Notes under the pieces: model-generated
What the model was told of the DNA's origin: nothing
What the model saw: the letters and a program-made list of their open reading frames with translations, nothing else
The model's database searches: none
Virus record (IMG/VR): IMGVR_UViG_2654587588_000015
Coordinates: 1 to 31,263 of that record
Direction: 5' to 3' (one strand)
From: a virus
Taxonomy: Duplodnaviria; Heunggongvirae; Uroviricota; Caudoviricetes
DNA: 31,263 nt
Made by a program: the position numbers and the translations under genes
Shown: positions 3,227-29,866 of the stretch, one piece after another
How positions within the stretch are numbered: the first letter of the stretch is position 1
Layout: every line of letters starts with the position of its first letter

Positions 3227-3516
3227 TGGTGGATTTACGTAAAGCGGCGCGGGGCCAGATGTGCCAGGTCAGAATCCCTGGCTACTGCAATCACAATCCC
3301 GAAACGTCTGTGCTGGCGCATTACCGACTGGCGGGAACGTGCGGAACGGCGATAAAGCCACACGATATGCAGGCAGCGATTGCCTGTAGCTCGTGCCACG
3401 ATTTAATCGACGGGCGGGTAAAAACCAGCGATTACACCAAAGAAGAATTACGCCTGATGCACGCAGAAGGTGTTTTTCGCACACAAGAAATCTGGAGAAA
3501 GGAAGGTTATTTATGA
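3226..3516 (+). CDS. YbcO-like (DUF1364) Cys-rich putative nuclease (96 aa)
   Basis: Start overlaps the upstream stop; multiple Cys/His; sits in the nin region before Q. Confidence 0.6.
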   Translation: MVDLRKAARGQMCQVRIPGYCNHNPETSVLAHYRLAGTCGTAIKPHDMQAAIACSSCHDLIDGRVKTSDYTKEELRLMHAEGVFRTQEIWRKEGYL

Positions 3517-4067
3517 TTTACCCAACGAATACAGGAAAAAGCGGAGAACACCTTCGTCTCACCACGCTGGAAAGTGTCTGGATTCAGGGAAAACTGCGTA
3601 TGTGGGGGCGCTGGTCGTATATTGGTGGCGGTAAGACGGGGAATATGTTCAACCAGTTGTTGACCTCTAAAAAGCTGACAAAAACGGAAATTAACGAGGC
3701 GCTCCGCAGGATGAAAAAAGCAGGTCTGGACAAACCTGAACTTGAGGCTTTTTTGCGGGGTATGATTAACGGCAAGCAAAAGAGCTGGCTGGCACATTGT
3801 ACCGATTCAGAGGCATTAATAATCGACAGGGTTATTGGCGAAGTACTGGCAGAACACCCAGGATTGATTTGTATCCTCCAGCAACGATATGAAGGGAGTG
3901 GGATGACTAAGCGAAAAATGGCTGAATTGCTGAATGATTCACACCCTGAGTGGTGTTACGCCACGTGCCGTAATCGCATAGATGCGTGGTTGAAAATGGC
4001 AGAGTTTATGCTCTATCTGCCGATGCGTGATGCATTCTCTTCCGGGGATTTAAAAACTGTCTGTTGA
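3513..4067 (+). CDS. Late-gene antitermination protein Q-like
   Basis: ATG 3513 overlaps upstream stop (ATGA); gene is immediately followed by a promoter-like element and terminator, upstream of the lysis genes. Confidence 0.6.
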   Translation: MIYPTNTGKSGEHLRLTTLESVWIQGKLRMWGRWSYIGGGKTGNMFNQLLTSKKLTKTEINEALRRMKKAGLDKPELEAFLRGMINGKQKSWLAHCTDSEALIIDRVIGEVLAEHPGLICILQQRYEGSGMTKRKMAELLNDSHPEWCYATCRNRIDAWLKMAEFMLYLPMRDAFSSGDLKTVC

Positions 4068-4093
4068 CTCAATCTGTTATCCGGGGCTATATT
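4064..4093 (+). promoter_or_regulatory. pR'-like late promoter candidate (TTGACT, 18-bp spacer, TATATT)
   Basis: TTGACT at 4064-4069 overlapping the Q stop; TATATT at 4088-4093. Confidence 0.4.
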
Positions 4094-4153
4094 TCCGAAG
4101 CGCCAGCAAAATCTGGCGTCGGGATTGGAACCCCGGATATCGAAACGGTGCAT

Positions 4154-4173
4154 ACCGCGCTGGCGGTTTTTTT
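4154..4173 (+). terminator. tR'-like rho-independent terminator
   Basis: CCGC-GCTG-GCGG hairpin followed by T7. Confidence 0.55.
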
Positions 4174-4336
4174 ATGCGCTAAGCACAGTCACATTCGCGA
4201 TTTATGGCGGGCTGTGTGGGGGCACCGAAAGGTGCACCGGATGTTTCGACCGGTAGTTCCAACCCTGCACAGTTCGCCACCCGATGATTGGAACCTGAAG
4301 GTGGTGAGGTAAAAATTATCGAAACGCGAGGTCGTT

Positions 4337-4900
4337 ATGACTGTTCAAGTTGCTGTCAAAAACCTTTCCCCTGTCACTTATAACCAGATTCCTGTAATCA
4401 CAACTGAGTTACTCGCCCGCCTTTACGGAACAGAAGCAATCCGTATACAGCAGAATCACCATAAAAATAAATCTCGATTTATTGAGGGAAAACACTTCTT
4501 TAAAGCTGTTGGTGATGAGCTCAAAAATTTGCGACTAGTTTTAAACGAGTCGCAAAATGAGGTGAAAATTTCTCCAAAAACCCGCTCCCTCATCCTCTGG
4601 ACAGAACGCGGCGCAGCCCGTCATGCCAAAATGCTCGAAACCGATCAGGCGTGGGATGTGTTCGAAAGACTGGAAGACTGCTATTTCAGACAAAAGGATC
4701 CGTCAGCGCCAGTTTCATGCCAGAAAAGTTACGACACGCGAGTTCTCTGTTATCAGCAAGGCGGTGTCACTGTTTCCACAATTCAGTTGCGGGATGATGA
4801 TATTGTTATTTCCCTTGAGTCATGGCTGGAACTGGCGAGAGCCAATGGTTGGTTTGTTGTTCGCAGAGATAAACTGGTGGAAAGGCTGATGCAGCTTTAA
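4337..4900 (+). CDS. ORF6N/KilA-N-like putative antirepressor or DNA-binding protein (187 aa)
   Basis: N-terminal region resembles recalled ORF6N-type domains; followed by its own terminator. Confidence 0.5.
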   Translation: MTVQVAVKNLSPVTYNQIPVITTELLARLYGTEAIRIQQNHHKNKSRFIEGKHFFKAVGDELKNLRLVLNESQNEVKISPKTRSLILWTERGAARHAKMLETDQAWDVFERLEDCYFRQKDPSAPVSCQKSYDTRVLCYQQGGVTVSTIQLRDDDIVISLESWLELARANGWFVVRRDKLVERLMQL

Positions 4901-4995
4901 AAAAGTTCTTGCAATTTTAGCCATAAACTGCTTCAATTCCAGTACGCTTCGCAAAGCTGTATCGCGAGGCGAATCAAGCGCATGAACTTTACCAG

Positions 4996-5024
4996 AACCC
5001 GCCATTGAGCGGGTTTTGTTGTTT
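4996..5024 (+). terminator. Rho-independent terminator
   Basis: CCCGC-CATTGA-GCGGG hairpin followed by TTTTGTTGTTT. Confidence 0.55.
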
Positions 5025-5532: not shown

Positions 5533-5749
5533 ATATACTCCTTTAATTGATATGGTTACTTTTGGCGATTTAACGATATCAAACACGAGGATATACCGCC
5601 AGAAGCTTAATCTGGTACTCCATCTGGCCCTGGCATGTCCCGGGGCTTTTTCGTTGTTAGGCTCCGGAAACATCCTCGACTTCTTGTGAGCAAGCCAGAG
5701 AGCCTGAATCTTACATTTAGCACCATCCGAACTTTCGGAGGTGAGGCTT

Positions 5750-6091
5750 ATGAAAATGCACAATGTCCCTCATTCCTGGCCTGACTTACTGGAACTCTTA
5801 CAAAGTTGGTGGCGTGGAGATACGCCGCTGGGTGCAGTGGTTATGTCAATTATTATGGCTGGTTTGCGCATTGCCTATTTTGGCGGTGGCGGCGGCTGGA
5901 AACGAAAAACGCTTGAGATTCTGCTTTGTGGTGCTCTGACGCTGACCTTTGCATCCGCGCTTGAGTATGTCGGATGGCCTAAATCACTTTCTGTTGCCAT
6001 TGGTGGTGGGGTGGGGCTGATTGGTGTTGATGCTATTCGTGGTGCGGCAATGAGGGTCATCGGTAACAAGTTCGGTGCCCATAAGGAGTAA
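5750..6091 (+). CDS. S: Lambda S-like class I holin with M-K-M dual-start motif
   Basis: MKMHNV N-terminus (ATG 5750 and ATG 5756) after GGAGGTGAGG RBS; hydrophobic segments; C-terminal region resembles lambda S. Confidence 0.8.
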   Translation: MKMHNVPHSWPDLLELLQSWWRGDTPLGAVVMSIIMAGLRIAYFGGGGGWKRKTLEILLCGALTLTFASALEYVGWPKSLSVAIGGGVGLIGVDAIRGAAMRVIGNKFGAHKE

Positions 6092-6094
6092 TTA

Positions 6095-6571
6095 ATGCAG
6101 ACACTTAATTCCCAGCGTAAAGCTTTCCTTGATATGGTGGCATGGTCAGAAGGAACGGATAACGGGCGACAACCGACACGTAACCACGGTTATGATGTTA
6201 TTGTTGGTGGCGAACTGTTCACTGATTACTCCGATCACCCTCGCAAACTTGTCACGCTAAATCCGAAACTCAAATCAACAGCCGCCGGACGTTACCAGCT
6301 TCTTTCACGCTGGTGGGATGCCTACCGCAAGCAGCTTGGCCTGAAAGACTTCTCTCCGAAAAGCCAGGACGCTGTTGCACTGCAGCAGATTAAGGAGCGT
6401 GGCGCTTTGCCGATGATTGATCGCGGTGATATCCGTCAGGCTATCGACCGTTGCAGCAATATCTGGGCTTCACTGCCGGGGGCTGGTTATGGTCAGTTCG
6501 AGCATAAGGCTGACAGCCTGATTGCAAAATTCAAAGAAGCAGGCGGAACGGTCAGAGATATTGAGGTATGA
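6095..6571 (+). CDS. R: Endolysin, lambda R-like lytic transglycosylase
   Basis: Protein nearly identical to recalled lambda R ([22 protein letters not shown]...); RBS AAGGAG. Confidence 0.93.
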
Positions 6572-7005
6572 GCAGAGTAACCGCGATTATCTCCGCTCTG
6601 GTTATCTGCATCATCGTCTGCCTGTCATGGGCTGTTAATCATTACCGTGATAACGCCATCGCCTACAAAGAGCAGCGCGACAAGGCCGCATCCATCATCG
6701 CTGATATGCAGAAGCGGCAACATGATGTAGCAGAACTCGACGCCAGATACACAAAGGAGCTTGCTGATGCTAATGCGACTATCGAAAGTCTCCGTGCTGA
6801 TGTTTCTGCTGGTCGTAAGCGCCTGCAAGTCGCCGCCACCTGTGCAAAGTCAACGACCGGAGCCAGCGGCATGGGCGATGGAGAAAGCCCAGGACTTACA
6901 GCAGATGCTGAACTCAATTATTACCGTCTCAGAAGTGGAATCGACAGGATAACCGCGCAGGTTAACTACCTGCAGGAATACATCAGGACGCAATGCCTGA
7001 AATGA
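6568..7005 (+). CDS. Rz: i-spanin Rz
   Basis: Start overlaps R stop (ATGA); N-terminal TM segment; high similarity to recalled lambda Rz. Confidence 0.85.
6761..6952 (+). CDS. Rz1: o-spanin Rz1 lipoprotein, embedded in the +1 frame of Rz
   Basis: Signal peptide with lipobox LVVSAC, proline-rich mature part; wholly inside Rz. Confidence 0.75.
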
Positions 7006-21930: not shown

Positions 21931-22232
21931 TGACAATTCAGGAAATTCCGCTGACAGCGGACAACCAGCAGTTCAGCATCGTCCTGGGTGGTGTCACCTG
22001 GCGGATTAGCATCATATGGCGCGATCTGTACTGGATTATGGACCTGCAGAACGACAGAGGGGAGCCGGTAATCTCCGGTATTCCTCTCGTCACTGGTGCG
22101 GACCTGCTGGCGCAGTACGCCTGTATGGGGCTTGGTTTTAAGCTGGTGGTGGTCTGTGATGACAACACACAGGATTACCCCACAAAAACTGACCTGGGCG
22201 GTCGCAGCCATTTACTGGTATCAACGGAGTAA
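21930..22232 (+). CDS. Tail/baseplate protein (100 aa)
   Basis: Coupled ORF in baseplate region. Confidence 0.5.
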   Translation: MTIQEIPLTADNQQFSIVLGGVTWRISIIWRDLYWIMDLQNDRGEPVISGIPLVTGADLLAQYACMGLGFKLVVVCDDNTQDYPTKTDLGGRSHLLVSTE

Positions 22233-22234
22233 GC

Positions 22235-23299
22235 ATGTCACAGAACTGGATGAGACATTTCGAGCTGCAGCTTGTGGACGGGAACGGTCAGGGAATTGAG
22301 CTAAGTGATTTTAAAGTCACCTTTACGATCGACTGGTTCAACATCAGCAGCGCGTCCCGGGTAGGGACTATCAAAATTTATAACCTCTCGGCAGATACTG
22401 TGAACCGAATCACCGGGCAGGAGTTTTCGAAAGTGCGTCTGATTGCCGGTTACGACGGTATCGCGCCGGAGGTGTCGGCAAGCGACGTCGGGACCGTGCG
22501 GGAAGTTGACGCGGCGGACGTGGGTCAGAGTGATGGCCGCAACTACGGACTGATTTTCAGCGGTGAAATTCGCTACTCGGTCACAGGAAAAGACAGTCCG
22601 GTTGATTCCTACGTCCTGATTCAGGCAGCAGATACTGATCTGGCTTTTGCCACCAGTATAACCTCACAGACGCTGGCTGCCGGTTACACGGTCGCTGATG
22701 TAAACCGTGCGCTGATGAAAGACTTCGAAGCCAAAGGCGCGACCGAAGGCCTGACGCCTGAAATGCCTGCTACTGTATTCCCCCGGGGGCGGGTACTCTT
22801 TGGCATGACGCGGCATCTAATGGATAACGTAGCCGGGCAATGTGGCGCAACATGGCAATTCGTGGACGGTCAGCGCCAGATGGTGGCGAATAACGAATAT
22901 GTTCATGAAGCGATTGTGCTCAACAGCGCTACCGGGCTTATTGGCATGCCGCAGCAGACTATCGGTAACGGCGTAAACGTCCGCGCGCTTATTAATCCGA
23001 ACATCCGGGTTAACGGACTCATTCAGCTGGATCAGGCTTCCGTGTATCGTACCGCCTTGTCGAACAACGATATTGCGATGGCTGGTGGTCAGATCACCGA
23101 CCAGAACACGGATGGAAATATCACGCTAAGCGGCACCACATCGCAGCCTGCCAGCATCGCAACGGATGGCGTTTATATTGTGCGCGGTATAATGTACACT
23201 GGCGACACAAGGGGCCAGGCGTGGTACATGGATATGATGTGCTTTGCTCGAGGTGCTAGTGATATTCCTAGCCAGTCAGCGATGAATCGAGGTGCATAA
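22235..23299 (+). CDS. Baseplate hub / late-control-D-like protein (354 aa)
   Basis: Position after tape measure and small tail genes. Confidence 0.55.
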   Translation: MSQNWMRHFELQLVDGNGQGIELSDFKVTFTIDWFNISSASRVGTIKIYNLSADTVNRITGQEFSKVRLIAGYDGIAPEVSASDVGTVREVDAADVGQSDGRNYGLIFSGEIRYSVTGKDSPVDSYVLIQAADTDLAFATSITSQTLAAGYTVADVNRALMKDFEAKGATEGLTPEMPATVFPRGRVLFGMTRHLMDNVAGQCGATWQFVDGQRQMVANNEYVHEAIVLNSATGLIGMPQQTIGNGVNVRALINPNIRVNGLIQLDQASVYRTALSNNDIAMAGGQITDQNTDGNITLSGTTSQPASIATDGVYIVRGIMYTGDTRGQAWYMDMMCFARGASDIPSQSAMNRGA

Positions 23300-23301
23300 T
23301 A

Positions 23302-24027
23302 GTGAGCAGGCTTGCGATAACCACAATCGTATTTTCTCTTTTTTTAACTTCATGTAGTTGGGATCCTAATGGTGCTAAAGCGCAGGAAAAATGGCTATCC
23401 CAAAAAAATGAAGAAAAACAAGCGTACGATAAGCAAGTTGAGGAGAGCCAGAAAAGCAGGCTTCAAATACAGCGCGAAGAAAAGTCTCAATTTGAAGTTT
23501 CACATCCAGAGGTTATCGTTGCTGGTGTTGGGAACGAGCTTAAAAGTAAGGGTGCAGAATCTTTGCGAGATGCGTACAACAGCATTCCATTCGTAACTCG
23601 TTATCCGGGAACCACGGACCCTAACAAAGTTTATACCTATGTCGGTGACTACAAATTAAATTTGCAACTGGTTAACACATCTGTGCTTTCTCAGATCTCA
23701 GATTGCAAACGCATTTCAGCGTATGCCGATGTTGATATTAATCGTACTTGCTTCAATCAAATTGGAAATGATTTGAGTTTGTTTGCATCTGTAATTAAAG
23801 ACAAAAATATTACTGGAATTGCCAAAAAAGCAGCTCTACGAGATTCAACTTACGGAACCAAAATTGATTTTGGTCATGCTGCGCGTTTAGCAAAAATGCA
23901 TGCCACTTTATGCCAAAAGCAGGGCGGTAAAGGATTTGTCAAAATGTCGACTGTAGCTGTGCCTTGCGGCTCTTCAGGCGATGTAATTAACTATCGAAGC
24001 GCCGGTAAGATGGGGCTTATAAACTGA
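23302..24027 (+). CDS. AT-rich lipoprotein (241 aa) inserted in the baseplate operon
   Basis: GTG 23302 with GAGGTG RBS; signal peptide plus lipobox LTSC; low GC versus flanks; own terminator downstream. Confidence 0.65.
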   Translation: MSRLAITTIVFSLFLTSCSWDPNGAKAQEKWLSQKNEEKQAYDKQVEESQKSRLQIQREEKSQFEVSHPEVIVAGVGNELKSKGAESLRDAYNSIPFVTRYPGTTDPNKVYTYVGDYKLNLQLVNTSVLSQISDCKRISAYADVDINRTCFNQIGNDLSLFASVIKDKNITGIAKKAALRDSTYGTKIDFGHAARLAKMHATLCQKQGGKGFVKMSTVAVPCGSSGDVINYRSAGKMGLIN

Positions 24028-24048
24028 AAAGATCAAATTAGTCACATA

Positions 24049-24074
24049 AAACCCGCCGGATGGCGGGTTTTTTG
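24049..24074 (+). terminator. Rho-independent terminator
   Basis: CCCGCC-GGAT-GGCGGG hairpin followed by T6. Confidence 0.65.
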
Positions 24075-24092
24075 CTTTCTGGAGCCTACTAA

Positions 24093-24845
24093 ATGGCAGT
24101 ATCTGACCAGACCCGCAGCGGCGACTTTGCCGAAACATTCAAATCTGAACGGGAAACAACAAAGAACCAGATCCGTGTCGCCTTGCCTGGCATTATTCAG
24201 TCATTCGATCCTGATGCGGTTACGGCAGTTGTGCAGCCTGCTATACGTTCGGTTGAAAAGGATAATGACGGCAACCGCATTACCCAAAATTACCCATTGC
24301 TGGTGGATGTGCCAGTGGTATTCCCGCGCGGCGGAGGCTGTACGTTGACTTTTCCGGTAAAAGCCAGGGATGAGTGTCTTGTCGTTTTTGCCGATCGTTG
24401 TATTGATTTCTGGTGGCAGAACGGCGGGATACAGGAGCCTGTTGATGACAGAATGCATGATTTATCGGATGCGTTTTGTATTGTCGGTCCCCAGTCGCAG
24501 GCGAGGAAGATTAGCGGTATTAATACCAGTGCCACACAGTTGCGTAGTGACGACGGCAGCACCTATTTTGAGCTTAATCCTGACACCAGGAAAATTAAAA
24601 TTGTCGCTCCGGGTGGTCTTGATGTGGTTGCCCCTCTGGCTGATTTTTCTGAGAAAGTAACCATTCATGGCCTGTTAACCTGGATGGGTGGCATGGTGGG
24701 GTCTGTTGTTTCTGGTGTGGCTTCAAAAATCACTGGTGCTGTTGAGTTCTTGGGGAGCGTTAAGGCTAACGGCAAGCCAATCGATGATACGCACACTCAT
24801 GGCGGTGTTCAGCGCGGTGGAAGCAATACCGATGGGGTAAACTGA
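24093..24845 (+). CDS. Baseplate central spike protein (Gp138-N / gpV-like)
   Basis: N-terminal region (PLLVDVPVVFPRGGG...DRCIDFWW...HDLSDA) matches recalled Gp138_N pattern. Confidence 0.7.
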   Translation: MAVSDQTRSGDFAETFKSERETTKNQIRVALPGIIQSFDPDAVTAVVQPAIRSVEKDNDGNRITQNYPLLVDVPVVFPRGGGCTLTFPVKARDECLVVFADRCIDFWWQNGGIQEPVDDRMHDLSDAFCIVGPQSQARKISGINTSATQLRSDDGSTYFELNPDTRKIKIVAPGGLDVVAPLADFSEKVTIHGLLTWMGGMVGSVVSGVASKITGAVEFLGSVKANGKPIDDTHTHGGVQRGGSNTDGVN

Positions 24846-25198
24846 TGCGATACAGACGTGAAGACGCCGATGGCGATTACACCTTTGGCAGCGGTGATGA
24901 CACCTGGCTGATTAACTCACCGGAGGCCGTGGCGCAGGCGGTAAAAACGCGATTCGAATTGTGGTATGGGCAATGGTTTCTCGACACCACCGAAGGGACT
25001 CCGTGGATCCAGTCCGTGCTCGGTAAGCAGAAGCCGGAAACCTACAACCTGGCGATCCGTAAGCGCATCCTCGAAACGCGGGGCGTTAAATCAATCCTCT
25101 CTTTCAATACGACAGTGGATACCACGACCCGACGTGTCATGTTTTCCGCTGAAATCGACACTCTTTATGGAATAACGACTGTTACATCGGAGGCGTAA
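24845..25198 (+). CDS. Baseplate wedge protein (GpW/gp25-like)
   Basis: 117 aa ORF between spike and baseplate J. Confidence 0.5.
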   Translation: MRYRREDADGDYTFGSGDDTWLINSPEAVAQAVKTRFELWYGQWFLDTTEGTPWIQSVLGKQKPETYNLAIRKRILETRGVKSILSFNTTVDTTTRRVMFSAEIDTLYGITTVTSEA

Positions 25199-26397: not shown

Positions 26398-27074
26398 GCA
26401 AATACACCGAACTAATCACGAACTACCACGCCACCAAACCTAAATTTCTTGCACATGTTGATCTGATGACCCGGCCGCTTATTGATGTTGCGGCGGCCAC
26501 CAGAGGGCTGATTACTGCATTTGATATTGACTCTGCGGTTGGTGTGCAACTTGACATTCTGGGATTGTGGATCGGACGTAGCCGTGTTGTCAGCCAGCCT
26601 ATCTCAGGTGTCTATTTCAGCTGGGATACCGACGGGCTTGGATATGATCAGGGGGTATGGCAGGGACCATACGATCCTGATTCCGGATACATGTACCTCA
26701 GCGATGAAACTTATCGTGTCATTCTTAAAGCGAAGATTGCGATTAATAACTGGGATGGACGGAATGATTCGCTTCCGGCAATTCTTGACGCGGCAACAGC
26801 AGGATCCGGGCTGCGAATGCAGATAGTCGATAACCAGGACATGACGATATCGGTCTGGGTCTTTCCTGATACTGATATTTCAGATGTATCGCGTGAGTTA
26901 ATTGCGGCAATTAAACAGGGGTATCTCACAGTAAAAGCCGCCGGGGTATGGGCGGGTGGCATTGAAACACCTTCGGTGGAAACCCCATCGGAAGGCTCAA
27001 AATTTTTTGGTTTTGATATGGATAACGAATTCATCAGTGGTTTTGATGTAGGAGCATGGGGAGTATTACTCTGA
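26394..27074 (+). CDS. Baseplate/tail protein, DUF2612 (e14 YmfQ-like)
   Basis: 226 aa ORF immediately upstream of the tail fibre gene. Confidence 0.55.
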   Translation: MSKYTELITNYHATKPKFLAHVDLMTRPLIDVAAATRGLITAFDIDSAVGVQLDILGLWIGRSRVVSQPISGVYFSWDTDGLGYDQGVWQGPYDPDSGYMYLSDETYRVILKAKIAINNWDGRNDSLPAILDAATAGSGLRMQIVDNQDMTISVWVFPDTDISDVSRELIAAIKQGYLTVKAAGVWAGGIETPSVETPSEGSKFFGFDMDNEFISGFDVGAWGVLL

Positions 27075-27721
27075 TGGCGAAAAATGACTTTAAAGCGTTT
27101 GCAACGGATCGAAATGCCAATGTTATATCGCAGGAGGAATGGGAAGCGTTGCCCGCGCTTTTATCCGGATTTACAGCAGGGAAAGCCTCCAGTGCGCAAG
27201 TCAATAAGGTTATTCGGCAGGCCAGCTTTATTGCTGCAGCTCTGGCCCAGTTTGTAAGTGATAAAACGCAACGGGATGTGCTTGATAATGGTGATCTGCC
27301 CGGTTTTGTTGAATTGCTGGGATCGGGGTTTGCTGTTGAATACCTGAGCCGCAAGAATCCGTTTGGCGATATCAAATCGGATGGCACTGTGCAAACGGCT
27401 CTCGAAAACCTTGGTTTAAGAGCAAGCGGGCAGTACACCGATAATTTGTTATTTACAGGTCCTGATGGTCTTAAGATTCAGGTGTTTCGCCGGACGCTCG
27501 CAAATTTGACTACTGTCGGTGTAGTAAATTCTGTGCCAGTGACTTTCCCTGTCCCGTTCCCTGTTAATTGCTGGGGCGTTTTTTCTACCAAATTAACATG
27601 GGTTCAGATAACTAACTCATGCGAGTGGGTAAGCAATACAGGATTTACCGCTCAGGTCATGATGAATATTGCTGTAAATACAAACACCTCAGACGCTATG
27701 TTTTTAGCTATAGGATATTAA
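27056..27721 (+). CDS. Tail fibre protein (constant N-terminal part plus currently expressed variable C-terminal part)
   Basis: Typical fibre N-terminus MAKNDFKAFATDRNANVISQEEWEA; crossover site lies inside the gene. Confidence 0.75.
   Translation: MGSITLMAKNDFKAFATDRNANVISQEEWEALPALLSGFTAGKASSAQVNKVIRQASFIAAALAQFVSDKTQRDVLDNGDLPGFVELLGSGFAVEYLSRKNPFGDIKSDGTVQTALENLGLRASGQYTDNLLFTGPDGLKIQVFRRTLANLTTVGVVNSVPVTFPVPFPVNCWGVFSTKLTWVQITNSCEWVSNTGFTAQVMMNIAVNTNTSDAMFLAIGY
27399..27424. repeat. Invertase crossover site (gix/pix-like), left boundary of invertible segment
   Basis: CTCTCGAAAACC-TT-GGTTTAAGAGCA; inverted copy of the site at 29232-29257. Confidence 0.55.
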
Positions 27722-27722
27722 T

Positions 27723-28163
27723 ATGAATCGTTTTGTGTTCAGTCCATCTGAGTCCCGTTTTTATGCCATCGAGTGGCAGGCTGATTATGTTGATAATAAT
27801 TGTTGGCCGCATGATGCCATTAACGTTAGTGACAGCATTTATTATGAGTTTTCCGGCGCTCCCCCTACAGGTAAGCAACTTATAACTTTAAATAACATGC
27901 CATCATGGGGTGATATTCCTCCACCTACACGAGAAGAATTAATTGTCGCTGCTGATGTGGAGAAGCAAAAAAGAATAGATTTAGCCAATGATTACATGAA
28001 CGGTAAGCAATGGCCTGGTAAAGCAGCTATTGGTCGTCTGAAAGGTGAGGAACTGGCACAATATAATTTGTGGCTGGATTATCTGGACGCACTGGAGCTG
28101 GTCGATACTTCCGGTGCGCCAGATATTGAATGGCCTACGCCTCCGGCAGTTCAGGCCAGATGA
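27723..28163 (+). CDS. Tail fibre assembly protein
   Basis: Tfa-like N-terminus; C-terminal motif LDYLDAL...DTSGAPDIEWP shared with the minus-strand paralogue. Confidence 0.8.
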   Translation: MNRFVFSPSESRFYAIEWQADYVDNNCWPHDAINVSDSIYYEFSGAPPTGKQLITLNNMPSWGDIPPPTREELIVAADVEKQKRIDLANDYMNGKQWPGKAAIGRLKGEELAQYNLWLDYLDALELVDTSGAPDIEWPTPPAVQAR

Positions 28164-28740
28164 CGTCCGGCGCTGTGCTGGTATCTGTTGCCGTCACCGC
28201 GTCAATGTAATCCAGCACAGCGTTAAGCCGGGTTGTTTCTGCCTGCGTCAGCTTCCGCCCGGCCTGTAATTTCAGTTGAATCAGACTAATGGAAGCCATT
28301 GCAGCATCAATCAGTGACTGACGCTGTGCTTCTGCCGCTTCGACTGCTGCGCTATGCTGTGCCTCAGTATCGGTCACCCATTTCTCACCATCCCATTTAT
28401 CGTATGGCGTTAATGGAGCGATAGTGGTTGTATTTTCAGGGTAATCACCCGGAGCTGTGATTTCTTTTGATTCTCCTGTTTCAGTGCTATAGACCGTTTC
28501 ACCGCGATGGTCTGGCACATATTCCCATGAGTTAAAATCTGCAGAACGGCAAATTGCATAACCAGCTTTATATGAGCCAGGAGCATCTAAACAGGAACAT
28601 GCCGGGATACCGACACCCACAGCAAGATATTCAGTTGATGTGGAAATATATTCCCGTGTCTCACCATCATAATTGTAAACGGTAATGTCTCCCGCCTTTG
28701 TGGTGATGAGTTCGCTATTTAATACAGCTTTATTCATCAT
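28135..28740 (-). CDS. Alternative tail fibre assembly protein (inverted orientation)
   Basis: C-terminal motif LDYIDAV...DTSTAPDVIWP; convergent with the plus-strand tfa. Confidence 0.8.
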   Translation of the reverse strand: MMNKAVLNSELITTKAGDITVYNYDGETREYISTSTEYLAVGVGIPACSCLDAPGSYKAGYAICRSADFNSWEYVPDHRGETVYSTETGESKEITAPGDYPENTTTIAPLTPYDKWDGEKWVTDTEAQHSAAVEAAEAQRQSLIDAAMASISLIQLKLQAGRKLTQAETTRLNAVLDYIDAVTATDTSTAPDVIWPELPEA

Positions 28741-29244
28741 GCGGCCCTTACGATATAATTAAAAGCGATGTTACGAGGACGAGTTTCTGTACCTACATTT
28801 TCACTAATTTCACCATAACGTTTAACACTACGAGAGCTAGTAGCTCGTAGTGAGGAAGGCACATTAAGACCGGGTTCGTCCGTTTTAACTATTCCCCCGT
28901 CACCGTATGTAGCCAGTATTCCTGGGTTTACTCCTTCCCGTGCACTTCCTGCGGCGAGTCCGTCCCCTGTCCATAATTCCATATAGTGTGCATGGTCCAA
29001 AATTGTGTGTGGCTGCCAATTAAGCAAAGCGCGACCAGTATCAATCCCGCGACCGTCATCCCAGCCACGAATAAATTCACCGCGTAAATCAGGCAATTTA
29101 TTGGTCGGGTAAGCCTTTGCCAGTTCCGGGTATTCTTCAGCAGAAAAAGCCGCACCGTTGCATTTCAGCCAGCCTGTTGGCGGTGTGACTGAAGGCCACG
29201 GAACAGGCACACCAACAGGTAATGCAGAACCTTCTCCCAAACCA
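28737..29244 (-). CDS. Alternative tail fibre C-terminal cassette, silent in this orientation
   Basis: Open frame runs from crossover site 2 on the minus strand; in-phase with the fibre constant part after inversion. Confidence 0.65.
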
Positions 29245-29257
29245 ACGTTTATGAAAA
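29232..29257. repeat. Invertase crossover site (gix/pix-like), right boundary of invertible segment
   Basis: TTCTCCCAAACC-AA-CGTTTATGAAAA, resembles recalled gix/hix consensus. Confidence 0.55.
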
Positions 29258-29311
29258 TGCAGAAATAACGAGCAAATGGCATCATTCCTGCTTTTGTCAG
29301 GGAGATCTACC

Positions 29312-29866
29312 ATGCTTATTGGCTATGTACGTGTGTCAACAAATGACCAGAACACAGATCTACAACGTAATGCGCTGAACTGTGCAGGATGCGAGCTGAT
29401 TTTTGAAGACAAGATAAGCGGTACAAAGTCCGAAAGGCCGGGACTGAAAAAACTGCTCAGGACATTATCGGCAGGTGACACTCTGGTTGTCTGGAAGCTG
29501 GATCGGCTGGGGCGTAGTATGCGGCATCTGGTCATTCTGGTTGAGGAGTTGCGCGAACGTGGCGTTAATTTTCGCAGCCTGACGGATGCTATTGATACCA
29601 GCACACCGATGGGGCGTTTTTTCTTTCATGTGATGGGTGCCCTGGCTGAAATGGAACGAGAACTGATTGTTGAACGAACAAAAGCTGGACTGGAGGCTGC
29701 TCGCGCACAGGGACGAATTGGCGGTCGCCGTCCCAAACTTTCACCAGAACAATGGGCGCAGTCCGGGCGACTAATTGCATCAGGAGTTCCTCGCCAGAAG
29801 GTGGCGATCATTTATGATGTTGGCGTATCGACTTTGTATAAGAAGTTTCCAGTCGGAGATAAATGA
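29312..29866 (+). CDS. pin: Serine DNA invertase (Pin/Gin/Hin/Cin family)
   Basis: MLIGYVRVSTNDQ N-terminus with catalytic Ser region and C-terminal HTH; track ORF begins at an upstream in-frame ATG at 29276. Confidence 0.9.
   Translation: MLIGYVRVSTNDQNTDLQRNALNCAGCELIFEDKISGTKSERPGLKKLLRTLSAGDTLVVWKLDRLGRSMRHLVILVEELRERGVNFRSLTDAIDTSTPMGRFFFHVMGALAEMERELIVERTKAGLEAARAQGRIGGRRPKLSPEQWAQSGRLIASGVPRQKVAIIYDVGVSTLYKKFPVGDK

Follow-up and report, generated by a model that had tools for sequence, protein, structure and literature searches.

A predicted lipoprotein gene in a standing cargo slot between the baseplate hub and spike genes of a lambdoid Escherichia coli prophage

Morons are extra genes located between otherwise adjacent phage genes; they have their own promoter and terminator, a distinct nucleotide composition and are expressed from the prophage. 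Phages also encode exported proteins acting at the cell envelope: T5 Llp and the Cor proteins of phi80, N15 and HK022 are outer-membrane lipoproteins that block FhuA, and T4 Spackle (Sp), the product of an early gene unlinked to the tail genes, is a periplasmic inhibitor of the gp5 tail lysozyme. In lambda, RNA polymerase modified by Q ignores terminators in the late operon. For morons the definition of Juhala and Hendrix, with lambda lom and bor and HK97 gp15 as examples, is used as cited in bioRxiv 10.1101/2024.10.15.618418. The lipoprotein Ltp, encoded by the prophage of Streptococcus phage TP-J34, brings about superinfection exclusion at the envelope; the host of this phage is Gram-positive, the Ltp gene belongs to the lysogeny module and is expressed from the prophage, and the protein has helix-turn-helix-like repeat domains (PMC3952083). 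Accessory hotspots of P2, old/tin and Z/fun, have been described by Rousset et al. 2022.

The window analyzed here, a stretch of 31,263 nucleotides in total, represents most of an E. coli prophage with lambdoid regulation and a myovirus tail like that of Salmonella phage SEN34 (Brunovirus type). SEN34 itself was described as the same kind of chimera, a phage of myovirus morphology with lambda-like regulation (PMC5261728). Besides tail genes the window encodes terminase and head genes. The tail genes are arranged in the order tape measure, Dit-like, plug, hub, lipoprotein ORF, spike, gp25-like sheath initiator and baseplate J. At 27056–29866 we noticed an invertible tail-fibre cassette resembling the host-range switch of the Mu G segment: its + strand encodes a fibre C-terminus (Gp53-like_C) and an assembly protein, and its - strand offers the alternative C-terminus (Collar domain), again together with an assembly protein. 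A serine DNA invertase (Resolvase + HTH_7) comes next. A sequence-only reading of this DNA had pointed to an AT-rich ORF of 241 aa between the hub gene and the Gp138-like spike gene, an arrangement confirmed by ORF calling, GC content and matches in Pfam and PHROGs. The junction contains the following features:

22235–23299, + strand: baseplate hub gene, anchoring the slot on its upstream side (phrog_196, E 7e-88; Pfam E217_GP41).
23302–24027, + strand: lipoprotein gene with GTG start, coding for 241 aa (stop codon included in the coordinates), 41% GC.
23302–23355, + strand: signal peptide (aa 1–17) with lipobox L-T-S-C (PS51257 pattern).
23365–23502, + strand: predicted single long helix, aa 22–67, 46 residues, rich in K/E/Q (AF2 model, pLDDT of the block 67–94).
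23503–24024, + strand: globular alpha/beta domain, aa 68–241, with conserved C135, C150, C204 and C222.
24048–24073, + strand: intrinsic-terminator-like hairpin AAAACCCGCC-GGAT-GGCGGGTTTT plus T-run, the right boundary of the slot.
24081–24084, + strand: Shine-Dalgarno sequence GGAG of the spike gene, read from the sequence.
24081–24845 (ATG at 24093), + strand: spike gene, anchoring the slot on its downstream side (Apex motif and Pfam Gp138_N, E 7e-43).

The lipoprotein gene is AT-rich (41% GC versus about 52%), and the GC content of the complete 793-nt insert amounts to 0.41 compared to 0.54 in the hub gene and 0.50 in the spike gene. Its GTG start codon begins 2 nt after the hub stop codon (23297–23299), and its Shine-Dalgarno sequence GAGG (23288–23291) lies within the final hub codons. 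A signal peptide with the lipobox LTSC had been proposed before, and both passed a formal check: the N-terminus MSRLAITTIVFSLFLTS-C is a strict match to PROSITE PS51257 with the motif FLTS-C. As lipobox criterion we used [LVI][ASTVI][GAS]C with the cysteine at position 15–35 and an uncharged hydrophobic stretch before it, together with a positive charge in residues 1–7. In the present protein Arg3 supplies the positive charge of the n-region, and the lipobox cysteine is Cys18 (codon TGT at 23353–23355), which precedes a Ser at position +2 and does not vary in alignments A1 and A3. Of 51 retrieved family sequences 36 match the pattern in its strict or relaxed form; the remaining ones are mostly fragments or show a lipobox-like Cys motif by eye. 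Nearly all full-length family members have a lipobox, and one (P0025) carries a Sec-type signal instead. In enterobacteria an Asp at position +2 acts as Lol-avoidance signal. None of the 36 scored family members has Asp at this position, and because the avoidance signal is missing we predict sorting to the outer membrane, where the lipoprotein would be anchored in the inner leaflet. Judged by these sequence features, ORF 23302–24027 encodes a real and conserved lipoprotein, exported by prediction.

At 90% identity the homologues of the lipoprotein form 15 clusters; at 50% identity the family has 36 representatives among 1.84 billion proteins, and homologues were detected down to 36% identity. 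Against three relatives dN/dS of the lipoprotein gene was 0.11–0.13 (about 0.12), by which measure the gene is under purifying selection. The hub gene is constrained slightly more tightly (0.03–0.07), and the spike gene is similar to the lipoprotein gene. AF2 yielded a confident model of the lipoprotein (m3eb20ded6662, pLDDT 85.6), in which the long helix probably serves as a spacer of roughly 7 nm from the lipid anchor to the globular domain. C135 and C150 are invariant even in the broad alignment, and the four conserved cysteines would fit a disulfide-bonded periplasmic domain. Some relatives are longer (330–378 aa) and have an extra N-terminal domain, likewise without family match. Sequence searches in Pfam, PHROGs, NCBIfam, PADLOC and PDB gave no match for the lipoprotein, including the long forms of 330–378 aa, and no known fold match was found for the globular domain. 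The sole near-significant fold match of the model was BFVD H9C1A6 (E 2.8e-3, 171 aligned columns). This entry is a viral protein of 324 aa and may be a relative of the long form from a sequenced virus. PGAP names the lipoprotein of the near-identical RefSeq locus L001 “HMG-box domain-containing protein”, which is not supported by Pfam scans and is apparently an annotation artefact. The name “thioredoxin domain-containing protein”, given at the same locus to the gp25-like sheath initiator (24845–25198), is also without Pfam support and likewise appears to be an artefact.

The lipoprotein gene was found in prophages only; tblastn searches with short and long forms detected no homologue in 50,697 deposited phage genomes. 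A genome scan seeded with alignment A1, the broad alignment A3 being too divergent for this, returned only 2 species representatives.

A query with the hub-spike region matched 352 of 5426 complete E. coli genomes (about 6%), and the lipoprotein ORF was present in only 12. Inserts between hub and spike ranged from 684 to 1715 nt in the sampled E. coli genomes and none of the junctions was empty. The junction was interrupted in every enterobacterial SEN34-like relative examined. Hub and spike genes directly adjoin or overlap in Providencia PSTCR3, Bordetella IFTN9 and Acinetobacter Ab105-1phi, and in Burkholderia Magia one reverse-strand gene lies between them. The assumption that operons of this type are normally uninterrupted thus holds for the Providencia, Bordetella and Acinetobacter phages but not for any of the close relatives examined. 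Since distant relatives have hub and spike adjacent, the slot is a derived feature of the enterobacterial branch; since every close relative examined carries cargo, the locus represents one allele of a standing slot and not a singular insertion. Separately, we noticed that some complete E. coli genomes hold up to three copies of the hub/spike module, i.e. polylysogeny with the same tail is tolerated.

Up to position 23242 the window shares 99.7% identity with relatives that carry other cargo; there the homology breaks, and the final 57 nt of the hub gene (23243–23299) diverge along with the cargo. The right homology breakpoint is located at 24046–24051, at the start of the hairpin. The comparison with related prophages that had been suggested from the sequence therefore identifies the lipoprotein as accessory and not structural, because tail genes of 99.7% identity occur with non-homologous cargo. 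Its placement is rigid. In 30 of 30 loci fetched from metagenome and viral collections the lipoprotein gene is located directly after the hub and before the spike; these loci span down to 36% identity, include long forms and sometimes carry extra cargo after the lipoprotein gene. Two later matches from genome collections, in Serratia and Limnobaculum, show the same placement. Altogether the gene is linked to one tail-module position in Escherichia, Citrobacter, Serratia and Limnobaculum.

In the other loci opened (E. coli, Yersinia YP3, Klebsiella Mulock, ST11-OXA48phi15.1, Citrobacter Omnitron and SEN34) the hub was followed every time by a gene for a 110–117-aa protein with a Sec signal peptide, beginning within a few bases of the hub stop codon. 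This exported protein of ~113 aa occupies position 1 of the slot in about 95% of relatives, and its family is ~25 times commoner than the lipoprotein family (393 versus 15 clusters). In SEN34 the GenBank start of SEN34_20 (L007, 3071–3412) is placed at an internal ATG, resulting in 77 aa; the ORF with TTG start comprises 113 aa including a signal peptide. The ~113-aa protein is probably the “STY1065/STY2022 family phage-derived protein” named by PGAP in two E. coli records. No family was matched in an NCBIfam scan of two of its members. It was modelled as an 8-stranded beta-barrel with moderate confidence (pLDDT 68.6), and inhibitor-like folds ranked below the top matches of this model. Homology between the lipoprotein and the small protein had been suspected from the segments LNLQLVN and LNVQLLQN and was rejected, as BLASTP found nothing. 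The two genes are mutually exclusive and never occur together. Right after the lipoprotein gene, short in-frame remnants of the 3’ end of the small-protein gene were detected at 6722–6772 in L009 and at 4559–4630 in L039–L041, and these adjoining leftovers indicate that the lipoprotein replaced the small protein.

Position 2 of the slot, after the small gene, holds highly variable AT-rich cargo. Examples are a TPR-like protein together with a HEPN-like one, a YafO toxin pair, DUF4282, DUF2335, a membrane protein weakly matching PycTM and a gene on the reverse strand; in some cases the position is empty. In L002–L006, L008, L042–L045 and L049 this position resembles an unexplored hotspot of defence or toxin-antitoxin genes.

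With respect to sequence divergence, the lipoprotein gene evolves faster than its flanks: in L025 the hub is 92% identical and the lipoprotein 48%. In L022 a dS of 0.07 stands against values of 0.48–1.03, a contrast that we regard as evidence of recent cassette exchange. Co-variation between lipoprotein and spike alleles was considered and rejected, L017 having a 99% identical lipoprotein and a spike of 68% identity. A literature search found no paper on the hub-spike slot, STY1065 or the lipoprotein.

The hairpin at 24048–24071 consists of 10 pairs, 6 of them G-C, with the loop GGAT, and is followed by a T6 run to 24073. With a folding energy of -18.7 kcal/mol (z = -2.8) it corresponds to the strong intrinsic terminator that had been noted after the ORF. 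It ranks first in the terminator lists of two scans spanning the + strand of the window, and these window scans gave no comparable + strand terminator-like site from the terminase genes to the tail fibres. RNAalifold supports 9 pairs, 4 of which show compensatory double substitutions (stems GCCCAC/GTGGGT, GGTCGC/GCGGCC and CCTCGCC/GGCGAGG), and Rfam yielded nothing above threshold around the hairpin. The terminator had been assigned to the lipoprotein gene as its own. This assignment was not borne out: hairpin, T-run and the ribosome-binding site of the spike gene are kept in 27 of 28 distinct upstream sequences from relatives, whatever the cargo, with the element located 16–27 nt before the spike ATG and Yersinia YP3 as the exception. 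Because it is kept upstream of the spike with all types of cargo, the terminator belongs to the slot and backbone and not to the lipoprotein gene. By analogy to lambda, Q-modified polymerase would read through the slot terminator, and in a repressed prophage transcripts initiated within the cargo would stop before the baseplate genes.

Consensus scans of 22200–24300 found no sigma-70-like promoter on the + strand, although a weak or non-sigma-70 promoter may be present. A perfect TATAAT at 23188–23193 is contained in the hub gene, at a distance of 108 nt from the downstream start of the lipoprotein gene, and has no matching -35 element. It arises from synonymous changes (GGT ATA ATG) and is absent in all relatives, including those with the same lipoprotein. 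Being private to the window and missing even in near-identical relatives, it was rejected as lipoprotein promoter and represents either a chance occurrence or a very recent promoter-like mutation. The 2-nt gap and the Shine-Dalgarno sequence inside the hub gene indicate that the lipoprotein gene is coupled to hub translation, and this tight coupling is conserved for every occupant of position 1. From the missing promoter and the hub coupling we infer that the lipoprotein is made together with the late proteins. It would be produced when Q-modified RNA polymerase passes the terminator, and low-level expression from the prophage may occur in addition. The designation moron, as used in the sequence-only reading, consequently fits in part: foreign composition and insertion between ancestrally adjacent genes agree with it, but no promoter was found and the gene is coupled to the hub. 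Given its sequence context, the most fitting description of the lipoprotein gene is a late accessory gene that is coupled to the hub and resides in a standing hotspot, not a self-contained unit of promoter, gene and terminator.

The late control and lysis functions relevant to this reading are located in the first part of the window:

3393–4067: Q-family antiterminator gene (DUF1133 + Phage_antitermQ).
4064–4093: pR’-like promoter match (10/12), directly 3’ of the Q-family gene.
4146–4167 and 4993–5018: terminator-like hairpins in the late control region.
5741–6091: holin of the lysis cassette.
6095–6571: ORF in endolysin position of the lysis cassette, adjoining the holin, without Pfam match.
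6568–7005: Rz of the lysis cassette.

As a whole 3393–5020 resembles a lambda-like late control region. The ORF6N-domain gene at 4337–4900, located between the two hairpins, looks like an inserted accessory gene. In the close relative L013 a lysozyme is annotated in the lysis cassette.

Taken together, we tentatively read the locus as an exported lipoprotein encoded by a hub-coupled late gene in the slot and acting as an entry block at the envelope, to which we give slightly less than an even chance. The lipoprotein may confer superinfection exclusion and/or protection of progeny. Two routes are conceivable. It would either mask an outer-membrane receptor from the periplasmic side, as do T5 Llp and Cor, or act within the periplasm like T4 Spackle, intercepting the tail tip or the peptidoglycan hydrolase that it carries. 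In both cases it would do the same job as the beta-barrel protein it replaced. A role of phage against phage fits better than a role in host fitness because the gene is strictly tied to one tail module across several genera; it is also favoured by the faster divergence compared to the flanks together with the recent cassette exchange, and by the predicted periplasmic location of both position-1 alternatives. Several observations speak against an entry block. We found no similarity in sequence or fold between the lipoprotein and known exclusion proteins or defence models (Llp, Cor, Bor, PADLOC). Expression restricted to the late phase would leave the lysogen unprotected, the beta-barrel model is of moderate quality (pLDDT 68.6), and lipoprotein and spike alleles do not co-vary. 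Furthermore, exclusion among relatives cannot be absolute because up to three copies of the module share one E. coli genome.

The post-hub slot might even be dedicated to “tail-linked immunity”. On this reading every enterobacterial SEN34-like phage would encode an exported protein there, mostly the small periplasmic beta-barrel and rarely the lipoprotein with its novel fold, and this protein would neutralise the tape-measure lytic transglycosylase or the spike of incoming relatives in the periplasm. Such a Spackle-like principle of exclusion would have arisen twice from unrelated folds and would be genetically fixed to the very tail module against which it acts. We consider this reading as a whole unlikely.

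The first alternative to an entry block is lysogenic conversion by an autonomous moron: the gene would be transcribed in the prophage state, its product would benefit the host (serum resistance, adhesion or envelope robustness) in the manner of lambda Bor and Lom, and phages would not be its target. The AT-rich, foreign composition of the gene is in line with this, as is its occurrence in prophages only (0 of 50,697 deposited phage genomes). The terminator after the gene would insulate the downstream structural genes in the lysogen, and in a close relative acyltransferases, i.e. conversion-type genes, are located at the prophage end. However, there is no promoter-like site upstream, the only perfect -10 nearby (23188–23193) being the window-specific synonymous variant, and the 2-nt gap and the Shine-Dalgarno sequence within the hub imply coupling to a late gene. 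The protein does not match the Bor/Iss, Lom or TraT families, and the one fixed tail-module position in four genera (Escherichia, Citrobacter, Serratia, Limnobaculum) argues for a phage-centred role. We assign a low probability to conversion.

A late-stage envelope helper of the producing phage without a part in exclusion, tuning lysis or outer-membrane disruption or shielding the infected cell from the phage’s own tail peptidoglycan hydrolase, would agree with the co-expression with late genes implied by the coupling, with the predicted periplasmic location and outer-membrane anchor, and with the lytic transglycosylase annotation of the tape-measure protein. The window, however, already has a complete lysis cassette of holin, ORF in endolysin position and Rz, no gene occupies the post-hub position in distant relatives sharing the tail module, and the high allelic diversity is unexpected for a housekeeping helper. 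This makes such a helper distinctly improbable.

A component of the virion or of baseplate assembly that merely resembles a lipoprotein is extremely unlikely. The gene lies within the baseplate block and always adjoins the hub, but the cleavable signal peptide and the lipobox found throughout the family imply export from the cytoplasm, the compartment of tail assembly. Hub, plug and Dit genes of 99.7% identity are combined with non-homologous replacements, and distant relatives with the same tail lack the gene. As the protein is exported, interchangeable on near-identical tails and dispensable in distant relatives, we regard it as not structural. A spurious or non-functional ORF in AT-rich filler DNA, for which nothing speaks except the odd composition and the GTG start, deserves next to no credence in view of a dN/dS of 0.11–0.13, homologues down to 36% identity with invariant Cys residues and the confident AF2 model (pLDDT 85.6).

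At present the locus is of a well-known kind: an accessory gene, so far uncharacterised, in a hotspot. If lipoprotein and beta-barrel protein block entry, they would constitute two new families of superinfection-exclusion proteins and would help to explain resistance patterns in prophage-rich clinical strains, the module being present in about 6% of complete E. coli genomes. Whatever the function, the hub-spike junction is a cleanly bounded cargo slot and convenient for mining accessory and defence genes.

In comparison with the lambdoid morons, the locus shares an extra AT-rich, non-structural gene in a Q-dependent late operon with a terminator after it, located between genes that are adjacent in other phages, here distant relatives. 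In contrast to them, the lipoprotein gene has no detected promoter and is translationally coupled to the structural gene that precedes it, the terminator is a conserved backbone feature common to all cargo variants, and the site is a permanent two-part slot that is never empty among close relatives. With Llp and Cor it has in common that a phage lipoprotein, here predicted to reside in the outer membrane, is encoded in or beside tail genes, and that a role in exclusion and in the protection of progeny is proposed. However, it is three to four times larger, has a long helical spacer and shows no similarity in sequence or fold, and it is linked to hub and spike and not to a receptor-binding protein. 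Like T4 Spackle, the lipoprotein is by prediction an exported phage protein that could meet an incoming tail tip in the periplasm, whereas it has no homology to Spackle and its gene is tail-linked. As in the case of Ltp, a prophage lipoprotein would be located at the cell envelope; no similarity between the two was detected.

Within the slot itself, the ~113-aa family shares with the lipoprotein the position, the coupling to the hub stop codon and the predicted export to the periplasm, but is non-homologous, has a Sec-type instead of a lipoprotein signal and is predicted to form a beta-barrel. The P2 hotspots likewise combine a fixed position near the tail genes with diverse AT-rich accessory or defence cargo swapped between near-identical phages. 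The present slot differs from them in lineage and position, in the constant presence of an exported protein as first element and in the conserved terminator at its end. Exclusion lipoproteins are already known, and so are accessory genes and hotspots in the tail regions of phages (P2 Z/fun, lambda lom); new are a lipoprotein family without known fold relative, its rigid post-hub placement, and a two-part slot in which the first element is constant and exported and a conserved terminator closes the cargo.
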